A program made the translations under genes and the position numbers. A DNA stretch of 18,304 nucleotides from a virus (lineage: Duplodnaviria > Heunggongvirae > Uroviricota > Caudoviricetes), in IMG/VR virus record IMGVR_UViG_2529292908_000003. One strand, written 5' to 3'. Below the pieces are notes generated by a model that saw only the letters and a list, made by a program, of their open reading frames with translations, did not search any database and had not been told where the DNA came from. Below are positions 1 through 18,304 of the stretch, piece by piece. Every line of letters starts with the position of its first letter. The stretch's first letter is position 1.

Positions 1-208
1 GTTCAGCGGTGGTGAGCCCGCCATCACCGCCTCCGGTATCCCGCTCATGCTGGCGTACCCAGACACGCAGAGTCTCCGGTGTACAGCCAATCTTTGGGGC
101 AATGGAACAAATTGCCGCCCACTGTGAGTCATATTCGCTCTGACTTTCCAGAACCATACGGACTGCCCGTTGACGGACTTCGGGGGAAAAACGAGTATTT
201 TTAGTCAT
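1..208 (-). CDS. insE: IS3 transposase OrfA (InsE), N-terminal part; 3' end lies outside the window
   Basis: Minus-strand ATG at 206-208 translates [69 protein letters not shown], the IS3 OrfA sequence from memory; SD-like AGAGGT upstream. Confidence 0.85.
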
Positions 209-262
209 CCTGTTTACCTCTTTCTCAGGAAGTTTAGTCTCCAGGATTCCCGGGGCGGTTCA
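1..262 (-). mobile_element. IS3, partial; left terminal inverted repeat ends at 262 and the element continues beyond the window start
   Basis: Reverse complement of 200-262 reads TGAACCGCCCCGGGAATCCTGGAGACTAAACTTCCTGAGAAAGAGGTAAACAGG followed by ATG of orfA, which matches my recollection of the IS3 left end; not search-verified. Confidence 0.8.
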
Positions 263-1024
263 TTTTCGGTCTACAAGTGTGGCTATATGAGAGTTTTTTG
301 TACCTGAGACTAAATCGCCCTCCCAATGCCCCAGAGAGCGTCTGTTATCGATATTTCGGGAACGTTCGTGAATTGGTGTTCCGTTCACTATGTTAATCGT
401 ACCTCTTTCGCCTTTGCGGGTATGACGCCTGCCATGGCGAAGGCTATGCGACCGTCGCAGATGCTGTATATTCAGGTGGTGTAGCGCTTCACGGCTACGA
501 AAGTACAGCGTTTTATAAATTGTCTCAGGTGATATTCGCAGCGTTTTTTGACGTGGTTTTGTTCGCCTTAACCATCCTGATATTTGCTCTGGAGACCATT
601 TCATCTCCAGCATTTCCAGAACAAGCTTTCGCAATGGTAAATTTTGATCCAGTAAGCACGGTTTTGGCCTTTTCGCCATTCTGTTGGCTCGGTTATTAGC
701 ATCAACAGCTTTGTAATAGCGTCTGCCCCGATTACGCTGAACTTCACGTGAGATCGTCGAAGGACTGCGATTCAGCGCAGTAGCTATCGCACGAATGCTC
801 ATTTTGGCTGACAAACCAGCTCGTATCTCCTCGCGCTCAGACAGTGTCAGGTGAGCTACAGCCCGCTTATGCTCATGGGGTTTTATGCCGCCAGTATCCC
901 TTAACATAGTGAAGATCGTTCCGGGTTTTGAACCCAGGATATTCGCTATTTCACTGAAGCCTGTTCCGTTCTTCCATAGTTCAAAAACAGAGGCTTTTTC
1001 CTCTGCTGTAAATGTTCGTCTCAT
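260..1024 (-). pseudogene. insI: IS30 transposase InsI, C-terminally truncated (254 of about 383 codons); stop codon is supplied by the IS3 end
   Basis: ORF translation MRRTFTAEEKASVFELWKNGTGFSEIANILG...HIATLVDRK matches the IS30 transposase N-terminus; reading frame runs straight into the IS3 terminus. Confidence 0.85.
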
Positions 1025-1086
1025 TCAAAAAACCTCCGCAACCCCATGTTTTCACATAACTGTTGCGTTGACCAATTGAATCTACA
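263..1086 (-). mobile_element. IS30 fragment; left inverted repeat at 1061-1086, distal part replaced by the IS3 insertion at 262/263
   Basis: Reverse complement of 1061-1086 is TGTAGATTCAATTGGTCAACGCAACA, the IS30 terminal repeat as I recall it, followed by the InsI start; element is interrupted after transposase codon 254. Confidence 0.85.
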
Positions 1087-1349
1087 GTTGCTTTTTTTAA
1101 TATATCTCGCTCAAGGCGAGCTTCATTTAACGCCTTACGCAGTTGCAGAATTTCAGATTCCAGTTCAGCCACCGTGCGGGAACCAGGAGTACCGAGCCCT
1201 TTTCTGGCGGCGGTAACCCATTGTCCTAAAGTGCCTTCAGGAAGAGATAATCGGGAAGCGCCTTCACTGATCGAAAGTTGATTTTCAAGAACCGTTCTGA
1301 CAGCTTCGGCTTTGAACTCTTTAGAGTAACGTTGGGTTTTTCTGCTCAT
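1087..1349 (-). pseudogene. IS3-family transposase OrfA (HTH subunit), N-terminal 87 codons, truncated by IS30 insertion
   Basis: ATG at 1347-1349 with AGGAG SD; translation MSRKTQRYSKEFKAEAVRTVLENQLSISEGASRLSLPEGTLGQWV...LERDILKKAT has the IS3-family OrfA HTH and leucine-zipper pattern. The 122-aa ORF in the track is a read-through chimera into the IS30 repeat. Confidence 0.7.
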
Positions 1350-1413
1350 TATTAGCTCCTTCTGATGCCATTCTATTTCAGGAAGGAGTGTCCGTTAAAC
1401 TCAGGCTACCTCA
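1087..1413 (-). mobile_element. IS3-family element (IS600-like), left-end fragment interrupted by IS30; outer boundary near 1400-1413 is approximate
   Basis: OrfA-like ORF begins about 64 bp inside a TG...-type terminus (reverse complement of about 1388-1413 reads TGAGGTAGCCTGAGTTTAACGGACACTCC); the orfA frame is broken by the IS30 terminus at 1086/1087. Confidence 0.55.
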
Positions 1414-1429
1414 GCGTATCTCGGCATCA

Positions 1430-3019
1430 ATGCGCAAACAGCCTGATGCCCTTCGCTACGACCGCCAAACTATTTTTGGCCTTGTCCGTGAGCGTCCGAT
1501 CGACATTCACAAAGATCCCGTAGCACTGAACAAATATATCTGCGAATACCTGACGACAAAGGGCGTGTTTGAGAATGAAGAAACAGACCTGGGCACTGTT
1601 GATGTTCTCCAGTCATCAGAAACACAAACTGATGCAGTGGAAACTGAGGTATCTGATATCCCAAAAAATGAAACCGCGCCGGAAGCTGAACCATCTGTAG
1701 AGCGTGAGGGGCCGTTCTATTTCCTCTTCGCAGATAAGGACGGAGAAAAATACGGTCGCGCAAACAAACTCTCTGGTCTGGATAAGGCACTGGCTGCTGG
1801 CGCCACTGAAATCACAAAAGAAGAATATTTTGCCCGAAAAAATGGCACATACACGGGCTTACCGCAAAATGTAGATACCGCTGAAGATTCAGAACAACCA
1901 GAGCCGATAAAAGTTACCGCTGACGAAGTAAACAAAATTATGCAGGCAGCCAATATCAGCCAGCCTGACGCCGATAAGTTGCTTGCTGCATCACGTGGTG
2001 AATTTGTTGAAGGGATTAGTGACCCGAATGATCCGAAATGGGTTAAGGGGCTCCAGACCCGCGATTCTGTGAACCAGAACCAGCATGAATCGGAACGGAA
2101 CTACCAAAAAGCGGAACAAAACAGTCCAAATGCGTTACAAAACGAGCCAGAAACGAAACAGCCTGAACCAGTAGCGCAACAGGAAGTGGAAAAAGTCTGC
2201 ACCGCCTGCGGTCAGACCGGCGGCGGCAACTGCCCTGATTGTGGCGCGGTGATGGGCGACGCAACATACCAAGAAACATTCGATGAAGAGTATCAGGTTG
2301 AAGTTCAGGAAGATGATCCGGAGGAAATGGAAGGCGCTGAACATCCACACAAGGAGAACACTGGCGGCAATCAGCATCACAATAGCGATAATGAAACTGG
2401 CGAGACGGCAGATCACCCAATTAAGGTGAACGGTCATCACGAAATCACATCCACCAGCAGGACGTGTGACCATCTAATGATCGACCTTGAAACCATGGGA
2501 AAAAATCCTGATGCCCCGATCATCTCAATAGGTGCAATATTTTTCGATCCGCAAACCGGAGATATGGGACCGGAATTTAGTAAGACTATCGATCTGGAAA
2601 CTGCTGGCGGAGTCATTGATCGGGACACCATTAAATGGTGGCTTAAGCAATCACGCGAAGCGCAATCTGCCATTATGACCGATGAAATCCCGTTAGATGA
2701 TGCACTGTTACAATTGCGAGAATTTATCGACGAAAACTCCGGTGAATTTTTTGTTCAGGTTTGGGGAAATGGAGCCAACTTCGACAACACGATTTTGCGC
2801 CGTTCATACGAACGGCAGGGGATCCCCTGCCCGTGGCGTTACTACAACGATCGCGATGTACGCACAATCGTTGAGCTGGGGAAAGCCATAGACTTCGATG
2901 CCAGAACGGCTATTCCATTCGAAGGTGAGCGCCATAATGCACTTGATGACGCCCGTTACCAGGCAAAATACGTTTCAGTTATCTGGCAAAAACTGATCCC
3001 GAGTCAGGCTGATTCTTAA
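1430..3019 (+). CDS. Prophage exonuclease with C-terminal DEDDh (DnaQ-like) 3'-5' exonuclease domain, acidic linker and CxxC-x7-CxxC zinc ribbon; 5' end probably truncated by the IS insertion
   Basis: Exo motifs: DLET (motif I), NGANFDNT (motif II), HNALDDARY (motif III, H-x4-D). The track ORF start at 1388 lies inside the IS terminus, so the first usable ATG is 1430. Sits upstream of xis-int as in lambdoid recombination modules. Confidence 0.65.
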   Translation: MRKQPDALRYDRQTIFGLVRERPIDIHKDPVALNKYICEYLTTKGVFENEETDLGTVDVLQSSETQTDAVETEVSDIPKNETAPEAEPSVEREGPFYFLFADKDGEKYGRANKLSGLDKALAAGATEITKEEYFARKNGTYTGLPQNVDTAEDSEQPEPIKVTADEVNKIMQAANISQPDADKLLAASRGEFVEGISDPNDPKWVKGLQTRDSVNQNQHESERNYQKAEQNSPNALQNEPETKQPEPVAQQEVEKVCTACGQTGGGNCPDCGAVMGDATYQETFDEEYQVEVQEDDPEEMEGAEHPHKENTGGNQHHNSDNETGETADHPIKVNGHHEITSTSRTCDHLMIDLETMGKNPDAPIISIGAIFFDPQTGDMGPEFSKTIDLETAGGVIDRDTIKWWLKQSREAQSAIMTDEIPLDDALLQLREFIDENSGEFFVQVWGNGANFDNTILRRSYERQGIPCPWRYYNDRDVRTIVELGKAIDFDARTAIPFEGERHNALDDARYQAKYVSVIWQKLIPSQADS

Positions 3020-3030
3020 TGTTCAACTGT

Positions 3031-3062
3031 CGCCGGTTGTGACTGGTATTCTGCAACCGGCG
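3031..3062 (+). other. Stable stem-loop between the exonuclease gene and xis (9-bp stem CGCCGGTTG/CAACCGGCG, 14-nt loop), no U-tract
   Basis: Perfect 9-bp inverted repeat read directly; function (processing or pause site, weak terminator) is unknown. Confidence 0.3.
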
Positions 3063-3091
3063 CTCGTCTGATGTAAGAGATAAAGAAATCG

Positions 3092-3342
3092 ATGAGCGAA
3101 GTAATCATGATTGTCTCTCCCGGCAAATGGGTATCCGAAGAGCAGTTAATTGCGCTGAAAGGAATAAAAAAGGTACGTTAAAAAAGGCCCGGGAAAAATC
3201 GTTTATGGAAGGAAGGGAATATAAGCATGTCGCTCATGACGGTATGCCATGGGATAACAGTCCATGCTTTTACAACCTGGAAGAAATTGATCGCTGGATT
3301 GAGCGCCAGGCATCAGCGAGACCAAGACGTCATCTTACTTGA
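3092..3342 (+). CDS. Excisionase (Xis)-like gene split across two frames; a -1 shift at A_AAA_AAG (3166-3172) joins a 27-codon N-terminal ORF (3092-3181) to the 56-codon C-terminal frame
   Basis: Joined product MSEVIMIVSPGKWVSEEQLIALKGIKK + GTLKKAREKSFMEGREYKHV...DRWIERQ has the lambda-Xis-like pattern including a GREY motif (lambda Xis DGREYLF), and lies immediately upstream of the integrase. Confidence 0.5.
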
Positions 3343-3361
3343 CTAAAAGCCACACTAACTA

Positions 3362-4657
3362 ATGAGAGAAGTTGAAATGAAATATCCGACAGGCGTGGAA
3401 AACCATGGAGGGAAATTACGTATCTGGTTTGTTTATAAAGACGTAAGAGTCAGGGAAAATCTGGGGGTTCCTGACACAGCAAAAAACAGGCGCGTTGCAG
3501 GTGAACTACGCTCCTCTGTTTGTTACGCAATAAAAACTGGTGTTTTCGACTATGCAAAACAGTTTCCCTCCTCACGCAATCTGGAAAAATTTGGTGAGGC
3601 CCGACAAGATTTAACCATAAAAGAACTGGCTGAAAAATTTCTGGCACTGAAAGAAACTGAAGTCGCCAAAACATCACTCAACACATACCGTGCCGTCATC
3701 AAAAATATCCTGAGCATAATCGGTGAAAAAAATCTTGCCTCATCGATTAATAAAGAAAAATTACTGGAGGTTCGTAAAGAGTTACTGACTGGATACCAGA
3801 TCCCCAAAAGTAACTATATTGTTACACAACCAGGGAGATCGGCTGTAACTGTAAATAATTACATGACAAATCTTAACGCCGTGTTCCAGTTTGGTGTTGA
3901 TAACGGTTACCTGGCAGATAATCCGTTTAAGGGGATCTCGCCATTAAAGGAATCAAGAACCATTCCGGATCCTCTTTCGCGGGAAGAATTTATCCGTCTT
4001 ATCGATGCGTGCAGAAATCAGCAAGCAAAAAATTTATGGTGTGTTTCTGTTTATACTGGAGTTCGCCCTGGTGAGCTGTGTGCACTTGGATGGGAGGACA
4101 TAGATCTGAAAAATGGAACAATGATGATCAGGAGAAATTTAGCAAAAGACCGTTTCACGGTACCAAAAACACAGGCGGGAACCAATCGGGTCATTCATCT
4201 TATTAAGCCAGCAATCGACGCTCTCCGGAGTCAGATGACATTAACGAGACTGAGCAAAGAGCATATCATTGATGTTCACCTCAGAGAGTATGGCAGAACA
4301 GAAAAACAAAAATGCACCTTTGTTTTTCAACCTGAAGTGTCAGCGAGAGTAAAAAATTATGGTGACCATTTTACCGTTGACTCAATAAGGCAGATGTGGG
4401 ACGCAGCGATAAAACGTGCCGGACTCCGCCATCGAAAATCATATCAGTCGAGACATACTTATGCCTGCTGGTCGCTGACAGCTGGTGCTAACCCGGCATT
4501 TATAGCAAACCAGATGGGCCATGCAGATGCGCAAATGGTATTTCAGGTATACGGAAAATGGATGTCTGAAAACAATAATGCACAGGTAGCTTTGTTAAAT
4601 ACACAGTTAAGCGAGTTTGCCCCAACCATGCCCCATAACGAAGCAATGAAAAATTAA
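3362..4657 (+). CDS. Lambdoid prophage tyrosine integrase (corresponds by synteny to the integrase next to rspB in E. coli K-12); alternative start at 3377 (MKYPTGV)
   Basis: 431-aa ORF with N-terminal arm-binding-like region and C-terminal tyrosine recombinase signature (RHTYA box, catalytic-Tyr region QVYGKW); last gene before host DNA. Confidence 0.9.
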   Translation: MREVEMKYPTGVENHGGKLRIWFVYKDVRVRENLGVPDTAKNRRVAGELRSSVCYAIKTGVFDYAKQFPSSRNLEKFGEARQDLTIKELAEKFLALKETEVAKTSLNTYRAVIKNILSIIGEKNLASSINKEKLLEVRKELLTGYQIPKSNYIVTQPGRSAVTVNNYMTNLNAVFQFGVDNGYLADNPFKGISPLKESRTIPDPLSREEFIRLIDACRNQQAKNLWCVSVYTGVRPGELCALGWEDIDLKNGTMMIRRNLAKDRFTVPKTQAGTNRVIHLIKPAIDALRSQMTLTRLSKEHIIDVHLREYGRTEKQKCTFVFQPEVSARVKNYGDHFTVDSIRQMWDAAIKRAGLRHRKSYQSRHTYACWSLTAGANPAFIANQMGHADAQMVFQVYGKWMSENNNAQVALLNTQLSEFAPTMPHNEAMKN

Positions 4658-4844: not shown

Positions 4845-5864
4845 TTATTCAGAAAAAGTGAGTAAGACTTTGCAGCAATGTTTTTGATCCTGTTCAAATA
4901 AACTAATGGCATCAGCAACATGCTGGAAATCAAACGTATGGGTAATTAATTTTTCTGGTTTAATTAACCCTTTACTTAACCAGTCGATAACGATCGGGAA
5001 TTTATTTGCATTTAAGCGTGAAGAGAAAATAGAGAGTTCTTTTCCGGTAATTCCTTGCTGAATCACTTCAGACGGTTCACTGGAGAACCCCATCAATACA
5101 ATACGTGCCGCTGGAGAAGCCAGCGTTACGGCCTCTTTCAGGATAGAAGGATGACAAGCCGCATCGATAATTAATGTCGGCTTGATGCCTTTTTCAGTGA
5201 AAATCTCGCCAAGCGGTGTCTGGCTGTTATTAATCGCCCAGTCAGCCCCGCTCTCTTTCGCTTTTTCCAGTCGTTCATCAATGCGATCGGCAACAATCAC
5301 ATTTTTAACGTTATAGACGCCTTTTAATACCTGAACGATCGTCAGGCCGATTGGACCGGCACCATAAACCAGAACGGTATCATTTTCAGTCGGTTGACCA
5401 TGTCCGGTTACGTTAGCCGCAATGGTAAAAGGTTCGATCATTACCGCATATTGATCGGCCACTGCTTCAGGAATTTTCCACGCATTTTTTGCCGGAACCA
5501 CGGCATATTCACTGAAACCACCGTCAGCGTGCACACCTAATACAGCCAGTGTCGTACAAACGTTCGGTTTACCTATAGAGCACGGATAGCAATGCCCACA
5601 GCTGACCACCGGATCGACAGCAACACGTTCACCGACTCTGGCGCTTTCCACGCCTTCACCCACTGCATCAATGACGCCAAAGAATTCATGACCAATGACG
5701 CGCGGATATTTCGCAAAAGGATTATGCCCACGATAAATATGGCTATCTGAACCACAAATTCCGGCAAGTTTCACTTTTACTCGTACTTCACCCGCTGACG
5801 GGGTGGGTATTTCACGTTCGACAATCGCCAGTTGATTCGGTTTTTCAATTAATATGCTTTTCAT
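4845..5864 (-). CDS. rspB: Starvation-sensing protein RspB, Zn-dependent dehydrogenase (MDR family)
   Basis: Translation MKSILIEKPNQLAIVEREIPTPSAGEVRVKVKLAGICGSDSHIYRGHNPF... with GHE and GxGxxG motifs; AGGAG SD before the ATG at 5864; the track ORF has an 8-codon upstream extension. Confidence 0.9.
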   Translation of the reverse strand: MKSILIEKPNQLAIVEREIPTPSAGEVRVKVKLAGICGSDSHIYRGHNPFAKYPRVIGHEFFGVIDAVGEGVESARVGERVAVDPVVSCGHCYPCSIGKPNVCTTLAVLGVHADGGFSEYAVVPAKNAWKIPEAVADQYAVMIEPFTIAANVTGHGQPTENDTVLVYGAGPIGLTIVQVLKGVYNVKNVIVADRIDERLEKAKESGADWAINNSQTPLGEIFTEKGIKPTLIIDAACHPSILKEAVTLASPAARIVLMGFSSEPSEVIQQGITGKELSIFSSRLNANKFPIVIDWLSKGLIKPEKLITHTFDFQHVADAISLFEQDQKHCCKVLLTFSE

Positions 5865-5875
5865 TATCTTACTCC

Positions 5876-7090
5876 TTACCAGTTCCACAGCGTGCCATCT
5901 TCCAGACGTGCGACTGGTAGATAAGCAGGTTCATAGGGATATTTCGCCGCCAGCTTTTCATCGAATTCGATACCAAGACCCGGTTTGTCTCCCGGATGCA
6001 TATAGCCGTTATCGAAAGTCCAGTTGTGCGGGAAGACTTCGAGCATTTGTTCGGAATAACCCATGTATTCCTGGACACCGAAATTGGGGACCCACAGATC
6101 AAAGTGCAGCGCCGCAGCCATGCAGACTGGTGACAAATCGGAAGGACCGTGTGAGCCAGTACGTACCTGATACAGCGAAGCAAAATCGGCAATCCGGCGC
6201 ATACCGGTAATTCCGCCTGCATGGGTCAGCGTGGTGCGGATATAATCGATGAGTTGCTCTTCAATCAGTTGTTTGCAGTCCCAGATGCTGTTGAAGACTT
6301 CACCCACTGCGATGGGTGTGACGGTATGTTGGCGAATGAGACGGAAGCATTCCTGGTTTTCCGCAGGCGTCGGGTCTTCCATCCAGAACATGCGATAATC
6401 TTCAATGCTTTTACCAAAGCGCGCCGCTTCAATAGGCGTTAAGCGATGGTGCATGTCATGCAGCAAATGTTCATTAAAACCAAACTTGTTACGTACCGCG
6501 TCAAACAATTTCGGCATGAAATCGAGGTATTTCTCCGTCGACCACAGCTGCTCTTCCGGCCACTGTCCTTTGGTTGCGGGTTCATAAGCCAGACCTTTAC
6601 CTTTCGACATGCCGTAGGTGGTTTTCATACCAGGGATTCCGCACTGCACGCGGATGGCTTTGAATCCAAGCTCTTGATGACGGGCATAATCATCCAGAGC
6701 TTCATCAATACTGTGACCGGTGGTATGGCAATAAACCATCACCCCTTCACGAGACGCGCCGCCGAGTAACTGGTAAAGCGGCATGTTGGCAGCTTTGGCT
6801 TTAATATCCCACAGCGCCATATCAACCGCTGAAATGGCCGACATCGTAACCGGACCGCGACGCCAGTAAGCACCTTTATAGAAAAACTGCCAGATATCTT
6901 CGATACGGTGCGCATCGCGACCAATAAGCTGCGGACAAAGGTGATCCTGCAAATAAGAGGCCACGGAAAGCTCACGTCCATTGAGGGTGGCATCCCCAAG
7001 GCCCGTAATACCGTCCTCAGTGGTGATTTTTAATGTGACGAAATTACGCCCCGGACAGGTAACAAAAACTTCAGCCTTTACGATCTTCAT
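5876..7090 (-). CDS. rspA: Starvation-sensing protein RspA, enolase-superfamily mannonate dehydratase-like
   Basis: Translation [40 protein letters not shown]...; 11-bp gap to rspB (operon); AGGAA SD; the track ORF has an 11-codon upstream extension. Confidence 0.9.
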
Positions 7091-7295
7091 GTTCGATTCC
7101 TTGCATCGCTTGTCGTGATGCATGAAATCTACGCAACTGAGCTACTACCATACAAGTATAAAGATCGAAAAAAGCCGGAGTGATCACAAAAAAAGGCGTA
7201 TATTTGCGCTGTGAATGGTTGACAAAAGATGAAATAGAATACCTTTTGTCAGCTGACACTTCCTCTTATCTTATTGATAAAATGGATTTATGTTC

Positions 7296-7622
7296 CTACG
7301 TGCGCCCCCAGCCCGCAACAATGATCAACATGCCGCAAAGCGCAATCAACGCACCCGTCCAGTCATAAAGAGTCAGTTTCACGCCATCCACAACGCGCAG
7401 CCACATCAACGCCGTGCAGACATAAACGCCACCATAAGCCGCGTAAACACGCCCACTCGCCGCTGGATGCAACGTTAACAACCAGACAAACAGCGCCAGT
7501 GAAATCCCCGCCGGAAGCAACAGCCAGATACTGGCGTTTCGTTTTAACCACAACCAGGGCAGAAAGCATCCAATAATTTCACACAGCGCAGTAGCAAAAA
7601 ATAGTAACGTTGTTTTAATCAT
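7296..7622 (-). CDS. ynfA: UPF0060 family inner-membrane protein YnfA (four predicted TM helices)
   Basis: 108-aa hydrophobic [48 protein letters not shown]...; position between rspA and ynfB as in E. coli K-12. Confidence 0.85.
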
Positions 7623-7756
7623 CTTTGTCTCTTATTGACATCATGTATAGTTATAGGGCGACATAATATCATCAATATAAACACCCTCCTGGTACGTTTT
7701 GCGTCCGCAGTGGATGGTGTAGAATCACCTTTAATCATTCATACAGGGAATGAATT

Positions 7757-8098
7757 ATGAAAATCACTCTCAGCAAACGAATCGGCCTGCTCGCTATTCT
7801 GCTGCCTTGCGCACTGGCATTGAGCACAACTGTTCATGCCGAAACTAACAAACTGGTGATTGAGTCTGGCGACAGTGCACAAAGCCGCCAGCACGCCGCT
7901 ATGGAAAAAGAGCAATGGAATGACACGCGCAATCTGCGCCAGAAAGTGAATAAACGCACTGAAAAAGAGTGGGATAAAGCCGACGCCGCTTTTGATAACC
8001 GCGATAAATGTGAGCAAAGCGCCAACATCAATGCCTACTGGGAGCCCAATACTTTGCGCTGCCTGGACCGTCGAACTGGCCGCGTTATTACCCCCTAA
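7757..8098 (+). CDS. ynfB: Secreted small protein YnfB (UPF0482) with N-terminal signal peptide
   Basis: [30 protein letters not shown]... signal peptide; AGGGAA SD; 34 bp upstream of speG. Confidence 0.85.
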
Positions 8099-8132
8099 CC
8101 TGTTATTGATTTAAGGAATGTAAGGACACGTT

Positions 8133-8693
8133 ATGCCAAGCGCCCACAGTGTTAAGCTACGCCCGCTGGAGCGTGAAGATTTACGCTATGTACATCAACT
8201 CGACAATAACGCCAGTGTGATGCGTTACTGGTTTGAGGAACCCTACGAAGCCTTTGTTGAACTCTCTGATCTGTATGATAAGCATATTCACGATCAGAGC
8301 GAACGGCGCTTTGTGGTGGAATGTGACGGCGAAAAAGCCGGTCTGGTGGAGCTGGTGGAAATTAACCATGTTCATCGCCGCGCAGAATTTCAGATAATTA
8401 TCTCCCCGGAGTATCAGGGGAAAGGTCTGGCAACCCGTGCCGCCAAATTAGCAATGGACTATGGCTTTACCGTTCTCAATCTCTATAAGCTGTATCTGAT
8501 CGTTGATAAAGAGAATGAAAAAGCGATTCACATTTACCGCAAGCTTGGCTTTTCGGTTGAAGGTGAATTGATGCACGAGTTCTTTATTAATGGTCAATAT
8601 CGTAATGCCATTCGCATGTGTATATTCCAGCATCAGTATCTGGCAGAGCACAAAACACCGGGTCAGACTCTCCTGAAGCCGACCGCACAATAG
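8133..8693 (+). CDS. speG: Spermidine N1-acetyltransferase SpeG (GNAT family)
   Basis: 186-aa translation [41 protein letters not shown]... matches SpeG from memory. Confidence 0.92.
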
Positions 8694-8695
8694 CA

Positions 8696-9406
8696 TTAAT
8701 AATAATCGATCGTATTTTTGATGGTGTAAACCCGTTCGACGGCGGGTTTTACTCCTTCATCAACAATGATTAGCTGACAGTCCACCGGATTAGCGTGACT
8801 GTCATATTCACAGCTCTGTTTTACATTACCAACCCGTTGATTATTCAGTAAAGTAACCGCTGTGTAATCTAATTTTTTGATCGGATCCGTTGATGGCGTG
8901 GCGCTGACAGATAATGTTTTGTCGTTACTTTTCGTGGTTTTACCCAGCGGATAACCCTGATCATCATAGCGATATTCCATCTGCATTTGTTTGCTGCTGG
9001 CTTTAATCACGAAGCCATTATCATCGGTTTCCCAACTCACCCCGGCAGAAGGTAATTCTGCTAGCTGGCATTTTCCCTGTAAACGTACTCTCTTCTCCAG
9101 CGTCTCGGCATCACGGTAATAATTGGCGTCCAGTACCAGAGCGACCACGGTATTATTTTCCAGATCCAGTAATTCGAGTGAATCAAAACAGCCTTCTTCC
9201 GACAAAGTCCCAGAAACACGTTTCGTCACTTCACCTTGCTCATCCATTAATGTCTGAGTGAAATCTTTTACCGGACCACGCAGCGGATCAAAATCGAATT
9301 CATTAGAGAAACTGGCCATCTCAGGGGTAAATGAAAGTGTTACCTCTGTGCGGTCACATCCTGTGAGGAATATCGCGAGTAAGCATGGTAGTAATTTGTA
9401 TTTCAC
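8696..9406 (-). CDS. ynfC: Lipoprotein YnfC (UPF0257), GTG start
   Basis: From GTG at 9404-9406 the product begins (M)KYKLLPCLLAIFLTGCDR with a lipobox LTGC; GGTGA SD 5 nt upstream. The ATG at 9442 in the track would put 12 residues ahead of the signal peptide. Confidence 0.8.
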   Translation of the reverse strand: MKYKLLPCLLAIFLTGCDRTEVTLSFTPEMASFSNEFDFDPLRGPVKDFTQTLMDEQGEVTKRVSGTLSEEGCFDSLELLDLENNTVVALVLDANYYRDAETLEKRVRLQGKCQLAELPSAGVSWETDDNGFVIKASSKQMQMEYRYDDQGYPLGKTTKSNDKTLSVSATPSTDPIKKLDYTAVTLLNNQRVGNVKQSCEYDSHANPVDCQLIIVDEGVKPAVERVYTIKNTIDYY

Positions 9407-14938: not shown

Positions 14939-15051
14939 ATGACCACACAATATGGATTTTTATCGATTCCAGCCGCTGTACTGGCTGTAAAACCTGCGAA
15001 CTGGCGTGCAAAGATTTTAAAGTTGGTTACGTATCGTTTAAAATCAATTAG
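14939..15051 (+). pseudogene. ynfG: ynfG remnant (4Fe-4S ferredoxin subunit): frameshift in a T5 run at 14957-14961, then truncation about 26 codons in
   Basis: ATG 14939 gives MTTQYGF; the ferredoxin motif IDSSRCTGCKTCELACKD lies in the +1 frame with no start codon, ends at TAG 15049-15051, and is followed by unrelated DNA. YnfG is about 205 aa in K-12 (recalled). Confidence 0.7.
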
Positions 15052-15095
15052 ATAGCCCGTCATTTCTGCGCTCACACGTCCCAACATTGAAAAAC

Positions 15096-15129
15096 ATGCA
15101 AAGCTTTGTAAGCCGATGCAAAGCTTTGT
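15096..15129. promoter_or_regulatory. Two copies of a 14-bp repeat ATGCAAAGCTTTGT, each containing the perfect 10-bp palindrome CAAAGCTTTG, spaced 20 bp centre to centre; operator-like
   Basis: Palindromes at 15099-15108 and 15119-15128, read directly; two-helical-turn spacing is typical of a dimeric repressor operator pair. Confidence 0.4.
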
Positions 15130-15215
15130 GTGTCTCACTTTTGTCCCAATACCAATCCGAATCCACCCTTTGTCATCATTGAGAAATGGCAAGGAAGAAA
15201 AGGATGTTACTGCAC

Positions 15216-15248
15216 GATTTGACAAATCCGCCAGAGCTATCGCATACT
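15216..15248 (+). promoter_or_regulatory. Promoter-like module A: palindrome GATTTGACAAATC overlapping a consensus -35 TTGACA (15219-15224), 18-bp spacer, -10-like CATACT
   Basis: 16-bp GATTTGACAAATCCGC is identical to 16628-16643; consensus -35; weak -10. Confidence 0.4.
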
Positions 15249-15266
15249 GACCGCACTACAACGTCA

Positions 15267-15302
15267 GCGGTCAACCGCACCCGATAGCTTTGCGGCTTTT
15301 TT
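15267..15302 (+). terminator. Attenuator/terminator-like element A: GCGG-tcaa-CCGC-(12 nt)-GCGG-c-UUUUUU
   Basis: Three short complementary segments allowing alternative pairings, followed by T6; same layout as 16692-16726. Confidence 0.4.
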
Positions 15303-15407
15303 ATGCCTGTTTACAGGTATCGCCATATCAATGGCGGGTCGAGAGAGCCTAATACAATACCCTTTCGGGAAATACGCTCCGCCGTCTGACGCGGTAGTTG
15401 AAGCCCG

Positions 15408-15416
15408 CCCCCCCCC
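15408..15416. repeat. Homopolymeric C9 tract about 40 bp upstream of the antirepressor-like gene A start
   Basis: Nine consecutive C at 15408-15416 (preceded by GCCCG), within the 5' leader of gene A. Confidence 0.9.
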
Positions 15417-15458
15417 ACTAAGGTGGCAGTCAATACTAAAACGTCAGGAGTCATAATT

Positions 15459-15743
15459 ATGACTAATCAACTCATTCCCGTTTTCGATGGAACCATCAAC
15501 AACGAACCAGTTTTACTTTGCAATGCTCGCAATCTGCACGCTTTTCTTGGTATTGGTAAAATGTTTGCTCACTGGATCAAGGACAGGCTGGGTGAATATG
15601 GATTCGTTGAAAATCAAGATTTTGTGATTGCTTGCCAAAATTGGCAAGCAAAAGGTAGAGGCGGTCACAACCGCAAGGAATACCACCTCACCCTCGACAC
15701 AGCCAAAGAGCTTGCGATGGTTGACGACTGCGTCCAATACTGA
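15459..15743 (+). CDS. Antirepressor-like protein, AntA-type N-terminal domain only (truncated paralog of the gene at 15993)
   Basis: AGGAG SD 8 nt before ATG 15459; product MTNQLIPVFDGTINNEPVLLCNARNLHAFLG...HLTLDTAKELAMV is about 60 percent identical to the N-terminus of the next gene, then diverges and stops; 44 bp (15681-15724) are identical to 16209-16252. Confidence 0.6.
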   Translation: MTNQLIPVFDGTINNEPVLLCNARNLHAFLGIGKMFAHWIKDRLGEYGFVENQDFVIACQNWQAKGRGGHNRKEYHLTLDTAKELAMVDDCVQY

Positions 15744-15790
15744 CTATACTCCGCGCCGAGGCCTCGAAAACCTCCCAAAAGCGGATTAAA

Positions 15791-15816
15791 CCAACCCCGT
15801 CAGTGTTGGATTTTTT
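15791..15816 (+). terminator. Putative intrinsic terminator after gene A (stem CCAAC/GTTGG, loop CCCGTCAGT, then A-UUUUUU)
   Basis: Hairpin plus T6, 48 bp after the gene A stop; loop sequence CCCGTCAGT recurs at 16704-16712. Confidence 0.45.
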
Positions 15817-15992
15817 ATGCCTGTTATTCAGTGATAGCACAGTGTGCGGTCACATCCCCGATCAATGTCGGGAGGGCGACGAATACAACACCCGCAAGGG
15901 GAATAAGTCCGCGGTATCTTTTGGGCCGTTTCGAGCCTCCCGGCACCACATCTTGTGGTGGCATTTCTCGAAAAAAGCCAAAGGAGGTCATC

Positions 15993-16622
15993 ATGACCAC
16001 TCAACTCATCCCTGTGTTTGAAGGTACAATCTCAAATGAACCTACGCTTCTGGTGAACGCGCGTGATTTGCATGGATTTTTAGAGGTAGGTAAAGATTTT
16101 TCTAACTGGATACGGGCCAGGCTAAACGAGTATGGATTCGTAGAAAATTTAGACTACATTCTATTTTCGCCAAATTTGGCGAAAACTCCAGGCCGCCGCC
16201 GCAAGGATTACCACCTCACCCTCGACACAGCCAAAGAGCTTGCGATGGTTGAACGTAACGAAAAAGGCCGCCAGATACGCCGCTACTTCATCGAGTGCGA
16301 AAAGAAACTTCGCAACATTCAGCCAGTACAAGCAGAACCACAGCCGCAATTCACAGCCGAGGAAATCATCCTCCTTTGCTACATGCAGCTCTGGATGGAA
16401 AAAGCCCAGGACATCAGCAAACACCTGTATCCCATTATGAAAGAGCTGAACTCCTCATACACGAACAAGCTGTATGACATTGCGTTTGAGACCATCTACA
16501 TGGTGACGAAGAACAGAGACGCGCTACTGAGGGAGGTAACACGTCTCGACATGTCAAGTTCCGTTATCCAGCGGGCCATGCCAATGCTGAAAAGCCTGCG
16601 GGCAAGACAATTCGAGTTTTAA
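15993..16622 (+). CDS. Phage antirepressor-like protein (AntA-type N-terminal domain plus a C-terminal domain shared with the gene at 16877)
   Basis: AGGAGG SD 5 nt before ATG 15993; MTTQLIPVFEGTISNEPTLLVNARDLHGFLEVGKDFSNWIRARLNEYGFVE...HLTLDTAKELAMVERNEKGRQIRRYFIE, and a C-terminus PQFTAEEIILLCYMQLWMEKAQ...LRARQFEF shared with the next gene. The track's 54-codon upstream extension has no RBS. Confidence 0.75.
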   Translation: MTTQLIPVFEGTISNEPTLLVNARDLHGFLEVGKDFSNWIRARLNEYGFVENLDYILFSPNLAKTPGRRRKDYHLTLDTAKELAMVERNEKGRQIRRYFIECEKKLRNIQPVQAEPQPQFTAEEIILLCYMQLWMEKAQDISKHLYPIMKELNSSYTNKLYDIAFETIYMVTKNRDALLREVTRLDMSSSVIQRAMPMLKSLRARQFEF

Positions 16623-16627
16623 GGCCA

Positions 16628-16660
16628 GATTTGACAAATCCGCATTAACGGGGATATATT
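16628..16660 (+). promoter_or_regulatory. Promoter-like module C: palindrome GATTTGACAAATC with -35 TTGACA (16631-16636), 18-bp spacer, -10 TATATT (16655-16660)
   Basis: Consensus -35, 5 of 6 -10; 16-bp identity with module A; begins 6 bp after the gene B stop. Confidence 0.5.
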
Positions 16661-16691
16661 CCGCTCCATGGTGCTGAACACACCTTCGAAA

Positions 16692-16726
16692 GCGGAAACC
16701 GCGCCCGTCAGTCATGCGGATTTTTT
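16692..16726 (+). terminator. Attenuator/terminator-like element C: GCGG-aaa-CCGC-(13 nt, containing CCCGTCAGT)-GCGG-a-UUUUUU
   Basis: Same three-segment layout as 15267-15302 despite different intervening sequence; T6 at 16721-16726. Confidence 0.4.
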
Positions 16727-16876
16727 ATGTCCATTTTTCAGATATGGTCGGGTAGCGCGTATACCGAAAAACAGCCGTAAGGCTAAGGATGCGGGCCGAA
16801 CTTTCGACGGTGTTCAAGTACCCGACCGCCCTGCTGAACACGGGGTGATCTGAACGAATCGAAAGGACATAAAACT

Positions 16877-17509
16877 ATGAGCACTCAACTTGTATTCCAC
16901 AATGTTCAATTCCAGACCGTTCAACGAGATGGTCTACTGTGGTTGTCTGCCCCCCAAATAGCCAGCGCGTTACAATATGCAGATCAAAGCTCGGTAACAC
17001 GCATCTATGCCCGTCACGCAGATGAATTCACAAACGGTATGACAGCCTCGGTCAAATTGACCGATCCTAAAGGGGACAAGCAAGAGACTCGCATCTTCTC
17101 ATTACGCGGCGCTCACCTAATAGCGATGTTTGCTCGAACTCCAATAGCAAAAGAGTTTCGTCGCTGGGTATTGGATATTCTGGACCGTGAAGCTGAAAAA
17201 AGCGCTATACCGCCACAACCTCATATTCAGCCTCAATTCACAGCAGAAGACATCATCCTGCTCTGCTACGTTCAACTCTGGATGGAAAAAGCACAACAAC
17301 TCAGTAAACAGCTATACCCCGTCATGAGAGAACTGAACTCTGATTACTATGGAAAGCTGTTTGATCTGGCCTACGAAACTCGTCATATAACCAACCGGAC
17401 TCGCGACACATTGCTCCGCGAAGCAGCAAAACTTGATCCCGCCAACTATACGGTGCACAGGGCCAGAAGTATGCTGGCGCAACTAAGAGCAAGACAATTT
17501 GAATTCTGA
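16877..17509 (+). CDS. Phage antirepressor-like protein (Bro-N-type N-terminal domain plus the C-terminal domain shared with the gene at 15993)
   Basis: AAGGA SD; N-terminus MSTQLVFHNVQFQTVQRDGLLWLSAPQIASALQY (Bro-N-like); C-terminus PQFTAEDIILLCYVQLWMEKAQ...LRARQFEF about 65 percent identical to the preceding gene. Confidence 0.75.
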   Translation: MSTQLVFHNVQFQTVQRDGLLWLSAPQIASALQYADQSSVTRIYARHADEFTNGMTASVKLTDPKGDKQETRIFSLRGAHLIAMFARTPIAKEFRRWVLDILDREAEKSAIPPQPHIQPQFTAEDIILLCYVQLWMEKAQQLSKQLYPVMRELNSDYYGKLFDLAYETRHITNRTRDTLLREAAKLDPANYTVHRARSMLAQLRARQFEF

Positions 17510-17514
17510 AACCA

Positions 17515-17536
17515 AAGGAGCTTCGGCTCCTTTTTT
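17515..17536 (+). terminator. Rho-independent terminator after the antirepressor array: 7-bp stem AAGGAGC/GCTCCTT, UUCG tetraloop, T-run
   Basis: Perfect stem with UUCG loop and T6, read directly, 6 nt after the stop at 17509. Confidence 0.75.
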
Positions 17537-17556
17537 CATGCCTGAAGGAAAGGAAA

Positions 17557-17778
17557 ATGGCAGATATCATCGACAATGCCGCTGAAATCGAAGAATTGCA
17601 GCGCAATCTCTCCCTGCAAAAATACAAATCCGATAGTAATGCCCCATCTGCTACTCATTGTTGCGAGTGTGGCGATCCGATAGATGAGCGGCGACGCCTG
17701 GCTGTTCGTGGATGCCGAGCTTGCGCCAGTTGCCAGCAGGATATTGAACTTATCAACAAACAGAGAGGTGTGAAGTGA
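17557..17778 (+). CDS. TraR/DksA-family C4 zinc-finger protein (phage TraR-like transcription modulator)
   Basis: AAGGAAAGGA SD; 73 aa with CxxC-x17-CxxC (CECGDPIDERRRLAVRGCRACASCQ), typical of TraR-like proteins of conjugative elements and lambdoid phages. Confidence 0.75.
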   Translation: MADIIDNAAEIEELQRNLSLQKYKSDSNAPSATHCCECGDPIDERRRLAVRGCRACASCQQDIELINKQRGVK

Positions 17779-18092
17779 ACATCAACACCACGATAACGAT
17801 CGATACAGCCCTGAACACCGGCCTGGCGCTCCTTGGTTATTTCTACATCATGTTCTGCAGCGGACGATGGCTGTCACTGTTGTTCATGAAAAAATGGAAT
17901 AAACGCCGTAAGCAGGAGCAACGCCAGAAGGCAATGGATGCATTTTTCGAAGCCTTCGGGATTGACAGCATGGAACCAGGGGATCCAGCTCGCGCAATCA
18001 GCAGAGGGGGCGTAGTAATCCTTGTATATCGGAGTGAAGAGAAAAATGACGATCACAAAACAACGTGTAGAAAAAATCATATATCGCCATGA
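17775..18092 (+). CDS. Hypothetical small protein with one predicted TM segment; GTG start overlaps the TraR-like stop (GTGA)
   Basis: ORF start and stop overlap suggests translational coupling; hydrophobic stretch GLALLGYFYIMFCSGRWLSLLF followed by a basic region; no family recognised. Confidence 0.35.
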   Translation: MNINTTITIDTALNTGLALLGYFYIMFCSGRWLSLLFMKKWNKRRKQEQRQKAMDAFFEAFGIDSMEPGDPARAISRGGVVILVYRSEEKNDDHKTTCRKNHISP

Positions 18093-18304
18093 AATGGGAC
18101 TGAACAGCGATGTCACTGCCGAAGAGGTTTATGACCTGGCTGTACTGGCGCTGAATTTATCAAATATCGCAAACCTGAAGCGATACGAGCTTGATATGGA
18201 TTGTTGTGACTCGTTCGGTCAGGATTGTGGCGCTGACATGACTGAAGATTCTGATGGCGATTATGTTCTGTTTGATGACGTGGTTAAGTTGTTTGAGTTT
18301 GATA
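18046..18304 (+). CDS. Hypothetical acidic protein, 5' part; ORF runs off the window end
   Basis: ATG 18046 with GGAG 11 nt upstream; 86 codons without a stop (MTITKQRVEKIIYRHEMGLNSDVTAEEVYDLAV...DGDYVLFDDVVKLFEF); absent from the ORF track because it has no stop. Confidence 0.45.
   Translation, partial: MTITKQRVEKIIYRHEMGLNSDVTAEEVYDLAVLALNLSNIANLKRYELDMDCCDSFGQDCGADMTEDSDGDYVLFDDVVKLFEFD

Follow-up and report, generated by a model that had tools for sequence, protein, structure and literature searches.

Our data indicate that one end of the DNA analysed here very probably records three successive insertions of ordinary IS elements, piled up at the int-xis-exo end of a Qin-type cryptic prophage beside rspB. 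The stretch, referred to here as the window, is 18,304 nt long and comprises the entire draft contig AIFX01000047.1 (assembly GCA_000249635.2), so that position 1 is a physical contig end, 262 bp inside a multi-copy IS. Its gene order, exo'-xis-int-rspB-rspA-ynfA-ynfB-speG-ynfC-ynfD-ynfE-ynfF, matches that of Escherichia coli K-12 across the right end of cryptic prophage Qin and into the adjoining chromosome. Since rspB and rspA, which are chromosomal, come after the integrase gene, we place the locus at the right end of Qin. From the outside inwards, the nest consists of IS600, IS30, and an IS629/IS1203-like element (Table 1). Intermediate states of the nest were surveyed among 5426 complete E. 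coli genomes.

Table 1. Coordinates of the nested elements, their visible target duplications and the adjoining prophage genes in the window.
Feature	Position	Strand	Basis or remark
IS629/IS1203-like IS3-family element, left end	1..262	-	terminal inverted repeat ends at 262; orfA from 208
IS30 nt 1-824	263..1086	-	left inverted repeat 1061-1086; transposase start 1024
IS600 nt 1-327	1087..1413	-	left terminus 1413; orfA start 1349; orfA cut in codon 88
GT, visible copy of the 2-bp target duplication of IS30 in IS600	1087..1088		ML35 compared with intact IS600
GCG, visible copy of the 3-bp target duplication of IS600	1414..1416		comparison with the empty site of TOE17
Exonuclease gene, 3' two-thirds (approximately 535 codons)	1414..3019	+	99.6% identity to the TOE17 gene
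Excisionase gene	3092..3342	+	1-nt deletion in an A7 run, window 3166-3171
Tyrosine integrase gene, intact	3377..4657	+	open reading frame list; annotated as a 426-aa site-specific integrase in ML35, AST198 and TOE17

We found that all three boundaries are exact and coincide with canonical IS ends, and that the reading frames of all three elements lie on the minus strand. The original prediction had read this end of the window as three IS nested in series, with independent termini and a common orientation, and our data bear this out. The possibility it had set against this, that the junctions are internal to a single composite element, fails, since each of the junctions is formed by a canonical IS end. 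With 95-100% identity to annotated IS copies over hundreds of bases, chance similarity is ruled out. A repeat scan of window 1-3200 returned no significant internal repeats.

The outermost level is IS600. The left terminus of IS600 occupies window 1401-1413 (reverse complement, TGAGGTAGCCTGA), which fixes at exactly 1413 a terminus that had been placed near that position; it reads TGAGGTAGCC. The visible IS600 segment is 100% identical to the uninterrupted 1264-bp IS600 of strain AST198, both ends of which begin TGAGGT, and the element is named here after the PGAP label of that copy, 'IS3-like element IS600 family transposase, programmed frameshift'. Where an interruption of orfA by the IS30 terminus had been predicted, we found that 263 nt of the frame remain, that is, 87 codons and 2 nt. 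The OrfA fragment matches the Pfam family HTH_Tnp_1 (E 1e-20). In the intact copy the frameshift site reads TTAAAAAAAGCAAC, and a -1 shift in its A-run leads into orfB, which lies beyond the window; orfA is cut 4 nt 3' of this A7 run. The empty target in TOE17 reads GGAAGCGTATCTCGG, also given as GGAAGCGTATC, while AST198 and ML35 read GGAAGCG-IS600-GCGTATCTCGG (GGAAGCG-IS600-GCGTATC), with the 3-bp duplication GCG on both sides. Assignment to IS600 is thus based on near-identity and termini, on the OrfA helix-turn-helix match and frameshift run, and on the 3-bp duplication.

The middle level is IS30, whose hallmark is a pair of 26-bp terminal inverted repeats (TGTAGATTCAAT...). The 26-nt left inverted repeat (reverse complement, TGTAGATTCAATTGGTCAACGCAACA) ends exactly at 1086, the terminus that had been predicted, and the ML35 copy at this locus, which has both repeats, measures 1221 bp. 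Window 263-1086 differs from this intact copy at a single position, 612. From the transposase start 762 nt remain, which are exactly 254 codons and agree with the predicted cut after codon 254; the C-terminal third (129 of the 383 codons) is missing. The truncated 254-aa product scores 111.9 bits against the NCBIfam model transpos_IS30 (cut-off 80 bits), over model positions 1-157 of 267, and matches Pfam HTH_38 (E 1e-23). The intact IS600 target reads CGCTGTTGC and ML35 reads CGCTGT-IS30-GTTGC. The inverted repeat, the transposase model, and the 2-bp duplication within a near-palindromic hot spot together identify the element as IS30. Target duplications of 3 and 2 bp had been anticipated, and both were found in complete genomes, GCG for IS600 and GT for IS30.

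The innermost element had been called IS3, an identification that our data contradict. A blastn search at word size 7 against IS3A of MG1655 returned only 9-nt chance matches, leaving no detectable nucleotide similarity to the K-12 IS3, and its OrfA is unrelated to the IS3 OrfA at the N-terminus. The third terminus itself lies exactly at 262, as proposed: window 256-262 reads CGGTTCA, the reverse complement of the tip (TGAACCG...) of the IS629/IS1203 terminal repeat, which in this group reads TGAACCGCCCCGGG..., and IS30 resumes at 263. OrfA leaves the contig at codon 69 and matches Pfam HTH_Tnp_1 (E 7e-8). Window 1-262 is 94.7% identical to an element of O157:H7 strain F7349 that PGAP labels 'IS3-like element IS1203 family', 96.9% identical to a copy in strain M15, and 99.6% identical to fragments (truncated copies) on F-type plasmids. 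Judged by its left end, the element belongs to the IS629/IS1203 group, its isoform being IS629, IS1203, IS3411 or another.

Intermediate states of the nest survive among the complete genomes. TOE17 carries an intact exonuclease gene with an empty IS600 target, and 23CRST047 has an empty target in the same left context as the IS-bearing strains, where a DUF977 remnant borders an exonuclease gene truncated at its N-terminus. IS600 alone is present at the locus in AST198, flanked by the GCG duplication. ML35 and 32 other genomes (n = 33) contain IS600 with an intact IS30 and the GT duplication, and are 99.97% identical to window 262-3100. The junction between the exonuclease gene and IS600 occurs in 36 genomes, and the triple nest at this locus in none of the 5426. 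Because each insertion disables the element it enters, the outer elements are the older ones, and for steps 1 and 2 the intermediates that survive confirm this order. The proposed chronology of sequential insertions therefore stands as documented for the first two steps, while step 3 is seen from one side only.

Elements of the IS3 and IS30 families are copy-out-paste-in elements. In step 1, IS600 (IS3 family, 1264 bp) entered the exonuclease gene at approximately codon 290 with duplication of GCG, and the gene lost its continuity at that point. In step 2, IS30 (1221 bp) entered IS600 at nt 326-327, duplicating GT. The site, 4 nt 3' of the slippery A7 run, is a near-palindromic hot spot for IS30. 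The insertion parts orfA from orfB and costs IS600 codons 88-100 of orfA together with the link to orfB, leaving a copy unable to make its OrfAB transposase. In step 3, the IS629/IS1203-like element, which is approximately 1310 bp long in related copies, would have gone in after IS30 nt 824, severing the transposase after codon 254 with loss of the C-terminal third of its catalytic region. The innermost element, of which 262 nt are visible, could alone still be autonomous.

We infer that step 3 was a simple insertion into this very IS30 copy. The right end of the IS629-like element would then read ...GGGGCGGTTCA in reverse orientation, and the rest of IS30 (398 bp) and of IS600 (937 bp) should lie approximately 1.05 kb past the contig end, which is a reasonable prediction from the arrangement in ML35. 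Only one junction of the third-level insertion falls within the contig. Neither the 5426 complete E. coli genomes nor any other contig in the gene index contained this IS629-like/IS30 junction; a 34-nt junction query also had no match in a contig collection with one genome per species, a comparison that is little informative. For the truncated 254-aa IS30 product, the window contig is the sole record. The third insertion is thus either strain-specific and recent or mis-assembled.

Entry of IS629/IS1203-type elements into IS30 is recurrent. At the hchA locus of M15 such an element lies after IS30 nt 827 with the duplication TGA, and in a P2-like prophage remnant of O157:H7 F7349 IS1203 lies after IS30 nt 1070 with the duplication GTA. 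Both insertions have the same relative orientation as in the window and clean 3-bp duplications on both sides, but they differ from it in their IS30 position (nt 824 here), in their loci, and in their IS variants over the 262 nt. We rejected a common ancestral event for M15 and the window. The M15 event is independent because the two junctions, although close, are 3 bp apart, because its IS30 is inverted relative to IS600 and lies at the different locus hchA, and because the IS ends differ at 8 of 262 positions.

The gene struck by IS600 is a Qin-type exonuclease gene, a homologue of K-12 ydfE. In TOE17 it is intact with 823 codons (2472 nt), and the insertion point lies approximately 868 nt into it, at approximately codon 290; from there on the window matches the TOE17 gene. 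IS600 is therefore not at the 5' end of the gene, where it had been placed. Nor is the description of the locus as a recombination module supported. Against the NCBIfam RecE/exonuclease VIII equivalog model PRK09709, which has a cut-off of 1269 bits, the exonuclease scored 258-281 bits, confined to model positions 271-600, and its C-terminus is a DEDD Rv2179c-like 3'-5' exonuclease domain (Pfam E 1e-67). By these matches the disrupted gene is a chimera with a RecE-like middle and a DEDD-exonuclease C-terminus. No recT or bet annealing-protein gene lies beside the intact TOE17 locus, which has dicB and ydfD upstream and xis downstream. With a RecE match below the cut-off and no adjacent RecT or Bet, the gene does not qualify as part of a RecE-type recombination module, and any role in recombination would be putative.

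The genes to the left of IS600 differ from those in TOE17, and we considered an adjacent deletion caused by IS600. This idea was dropped because the left flank of IS600 keeps 381 bp of the exonuclease gene together with a perfect GCG duplication. The N-terminal truncation of the exonuclease gene is a separate event that is also found in 23CRST047, where IS600 is lacking.

The prophage had also been described as a decayed, IS-ridden remnant, and this is supported by pseudogenes and by insertions of ISNCY, ISKpn26, and ISCro1 near the locus in relatives, and by IS2E in the K-12 gene. In the window, alignment with ML35 and TOE17 revealed the deletion in the excisionase gene listed in Table 1; the gene call is 45 aa on this contig compared to an 83-aa excisionase family protein in relatives. 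The right end of Qin in K-12 reads ydfE pseudogene, IS2E remnant, intQ pseudogene, rspB. It is the same prophage with the same exonuclease gene and rspB junction, and there too the gene has been wrecked by an IS. In K-12, however, the IS is IS2, and xis and part of intQ have been deleted with it, whereas the window keeps xis and int.

We read step 2 as a hot-spot insertion, targeted rather than random, because the same IS600 dinucleotide is used repeatedly, because the homologous site in IS911A has also been hit, and because the target is symmetric and resembles a known IS30 hot spot in lambda. IS600 nt 327 is joined to the left end of IS30, with 100% conservation of the junction, in 1284 of the 5426 genomes at several loci, including K-12 (KpLE2, near fecE) and an ST-enterotoxin plasmid, with the similarity stopping exactly at the IS600 terminus. 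In 850 genomes the same dinucleotide is joined to the right end of IS30, in the opposite orientation, and both orientations are found at different loci and on plasmids. IS30A of K-12 lies in IS911A at the homologous dinucleotide with the duplication AC. The IS911A site reads ...TTAAAAAAGGCT(AC) and the IS600 site TTAAAAAAAGCA(AC), both located 4 nt 3' of a slippery A-run. IS30 is a copy-out-paste-in IS that targets near-palindromic hot spots with a 2-bp stagger (PMC9333248). The 24-mer around the IS600 target is within the 9 most symmetric of 1241 IS600 positions. Aligned in register with the lambda LHS hot spot, it agrees at 16 of 24 positions, and its central dinucleotide coincides with lambda 33290/33291, where the LHS split is placed (PMC9333248); this comparison uses the LHS coordinates of that paper and not the published IS30 consensus ('GOHS').

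Two K-12 structures resemble level 2 of the nest. IS911A::IS30A in the cryptic prophage CP4-6, drawn as IS911 interrupted by IS30A in a figure legend (Fig 3 of PMC9333248), shares an IS3-family host, the homologous dinucleotide, a 2-bp duplication, and the relative orientation of IS30, but its host is IS911 instead of IS600, it lies in another prophage, and it is without a third-level insertion. IS600'/IS30D in KpLE2 near fecE shows IS600 nt 1-327 joined to the left end of IS30 exactly as in the window, with 99.8% identity across 1549 nt. It differs in lying outside Qin and in that the far side of IS30 is the 5' half of an inward-facing IS911-like element. Its flanking dinucleotides are AC and GT, which are reverse complements, and together with the IS911-like far side they indicate a rearrangement, not a simple insertion. 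Taken together, we think it likely that IS30 has a conserved, natural and near-palindromic hot spot, TTAAAAAA(A/G)GC(A/T) followed by the target dinucleotide AC, directly 3' of the -1 frameshift run of IS600 and IS911, that IS30 repeatedly and specifically disables their OrfAB synthesis, and that level 2 is a product of this targeting. We found no account of such an IS30 hot spot in IS3-family elements in the searchable literature, although the subject may be covered by Olasz et al. 1998.

The widespread occurrence of the IS600::IS30 junction through the hot spot means that insertion in situ is not the only route by which level 2 could have reached the Qin locus. The pair may have arrived ready-made, as a composite mobilised in trans or by recombination or gene conversion with a KpLE2-type copy, in which case the nesting would not date local events; the identical junction at other loci in the 1284 genomes, K-12 KpLE2 and the ST-enterotoxin plasmid among them, fits such a transfer. 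Against it, the IS600 that AST198 carries at this site, flanked by the same GCG duplication, is uninterrupted, and IS30 re-enters the dinucleotide independently, as the 850 opposite-orientation genomes and the homologous IS911A site attest, so that a fresh hot-spot insertion accounts for the data without extra steps. We regard ready-made arrival as unlikely and insertion of IS30 in situ as likely, and the order of IS600 before IS30 stands either way.

Slightly less probable still, and equal to each other in this respect, are two alternatives to simple insertion at the third level. The junction at 262 could mark where a rearrangement mediated by IS629 ends, for instance a deletion or inversion next to the element, and the distal parts of IS30 and IS600 would then not follow. 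IS629-type elements are associated with adjacent deletions in E. coli O157, and a single junction is visible here whereas the insertions in M15 and O157:H7 show 3-bp duplications on both sides. However, the 33 closest genomes (99.97% identity) keep both distal parts directly adjacent, and IS629/IS1203-type elements have entered IS30 by simple insertion twice elsewhere. The other alternative is an assembly artefact, in which the junction, though genuine sequence of the strain, stems from another IS30 copy, was joined to this locus via the 824-bp IS30 repeat, and hides a local IS30 that, like that of ML35, is intact. The window, a whole draft contig, ends inside a repeat, the 824-nt IS30 segment is a repeat beyond the short-read span, and IS30 and IS600 are multi-copy in most E. 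coli, with 4154-4464 of the 5426 genomes partly matching the junction queries. An artefact would also account for the lack of the triple nest at this locus in complete genomes, and M15 has a very similar IS30::IS3-family structure at hchA to draw on. Yet the IS30 segment is 1 base from the same-locus ML35 copy and 4 from the M15 copy, and the junction lies 3 bp from that of M15, so it is not simply the M15 structure and copies no known junction. Moreover, assembly contigs usually break at branch points, and this one runs 262 bp past. We therefore favour a simple insertion of the IS629/IS1203-like element into the IS30 copy at the Qin locus.

Nested IS in a cryptic prophage are an ordinary, already-known kind of genome decay, and 33 complete genomes already carry two of the three levels in annotated form. 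The sole new part is the strain-specific third insertion, seen at a contig end from one side; its IS629-like/IS30 junction is a possible strain-specific marker for the lineage of the draft assembly. The locus offers a worked example in which the logic that outer is older holds for the two levels visible from both sides. The IS600::IS30 junction, present in roughly a quarter of E. coli genomes, is a hot-spot product and is therefore unfit to argue for common ancestry or for a composite transposon. The most interesting by-product of this analysis is the IS30 hot spot at the frameshift window of IS3-family elements which, if true, would mean that one IS acts as a targeted disabler of another.

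The exonuclease gene of the Qin-type prophage encodes a chimera of domains. Profile models place its middle region with RecE (RecE model positions 271-600), and this RecE-like region is joined to a DEDD Rv2179c-like 3'-5' exonuclease domain. The DEDD domain takes the place of the nuclease domain known from RecE. In the window, a GTG within the IS600 terminal repeat opens a reading frame that continues in phase through the remaining 534 exonuclease codons, including the entire DEDD domain. The sequence homologous to this frame is annotated as a pseudogene by PGAP.

We found by alignment that the excisionase gene, xis, contains an A6 tract in the window while ML35 and TOE17 have A7. The shorter tract puts the 83-codon gene out of frame, and only 45 aa are called for it in the window contig. 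In a draft assembly, A6 could reflect a sequencing error in the homopolymer, or else a genuine mutation that inactivates xis.

At the other side of the window, the complete genomes AST198, TOE17, and 23CRST047 align at 99.1-99.8% across the final segment. In all three, ynfG, the 4Fe-4S subunit gene that follows ynfF, is annotated as cut after approximately 84 nt. Beyond it begins a second lambdoid prophage, represented first by its early region, and the right end of the window contig falls within this prophage. Two matches to sRNA-Xcc1 (Rfam gathering score, 53), spaced approximately 880 nt apart, both lie in the antirepressor region of this second prophage.

Features at the Qin end and in compared E. 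coli sequences
Feature	Sequence	Coordinates	Strand	Remarks
Exonuclease gene, intact	TOE17 (L005)	5136-7607
Exonuclease gene, remaining part	Window	1414-3019	+
Open frame	Window	1388-3019	+
xis	Window	3092-3342
xis A6 tract	Window	3166-3171
Segment aligned to three genomes	Window	~14939-18304
sRNA-Xcc1 match 1	Window	15867-15952	+	Rfam, 73.4 bits
sRNA-Xcc1 match 2	Window	16746-16835	+	Rfam, 67.7 bits
Second prophage early-region genes	AST198, TOE17, 23CRST047			Annotated AntA/AntB antirepressors, P22AR, TraR/DksA, DUF4752, Ea22-like
ISCro1 (IS66 family) in int	23CRST047 (L011)	4966-8953 and 1052-2032		Ranges joint with ISKpn26
ISKpn26 (IS5 family) in methyltransferase gene	23CRST047 (L011)	4966-8953 and 1052-2032		Ranges joint with ISCro1
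IS2E in ydfE	K-12 Qin (L013)	5844-6549
IS30D	K-12 KpLE2 region with IS30D and its flanks (L006)	2578-4388

The Qin end has been struck independently by other insertion sequences in other lineages, namely those of 23CRST047 and K-12. Within the KpLE2 region of K-12, IS30D has the 5' half of an IS3-family element on either side, and the two elements differ: one is IS911-like and the other is IS600. Both halves face inward and end at the homologous hot-spot dinucleotide, the IS30 target just 3' of the frameshift A-run. The dinucleotides bordering IS30D, AC and GT, are reverse complements and form no direct repeat. Such flanks are the mark of an inversion associated with IS30, or of two IS30 copies having recombined.
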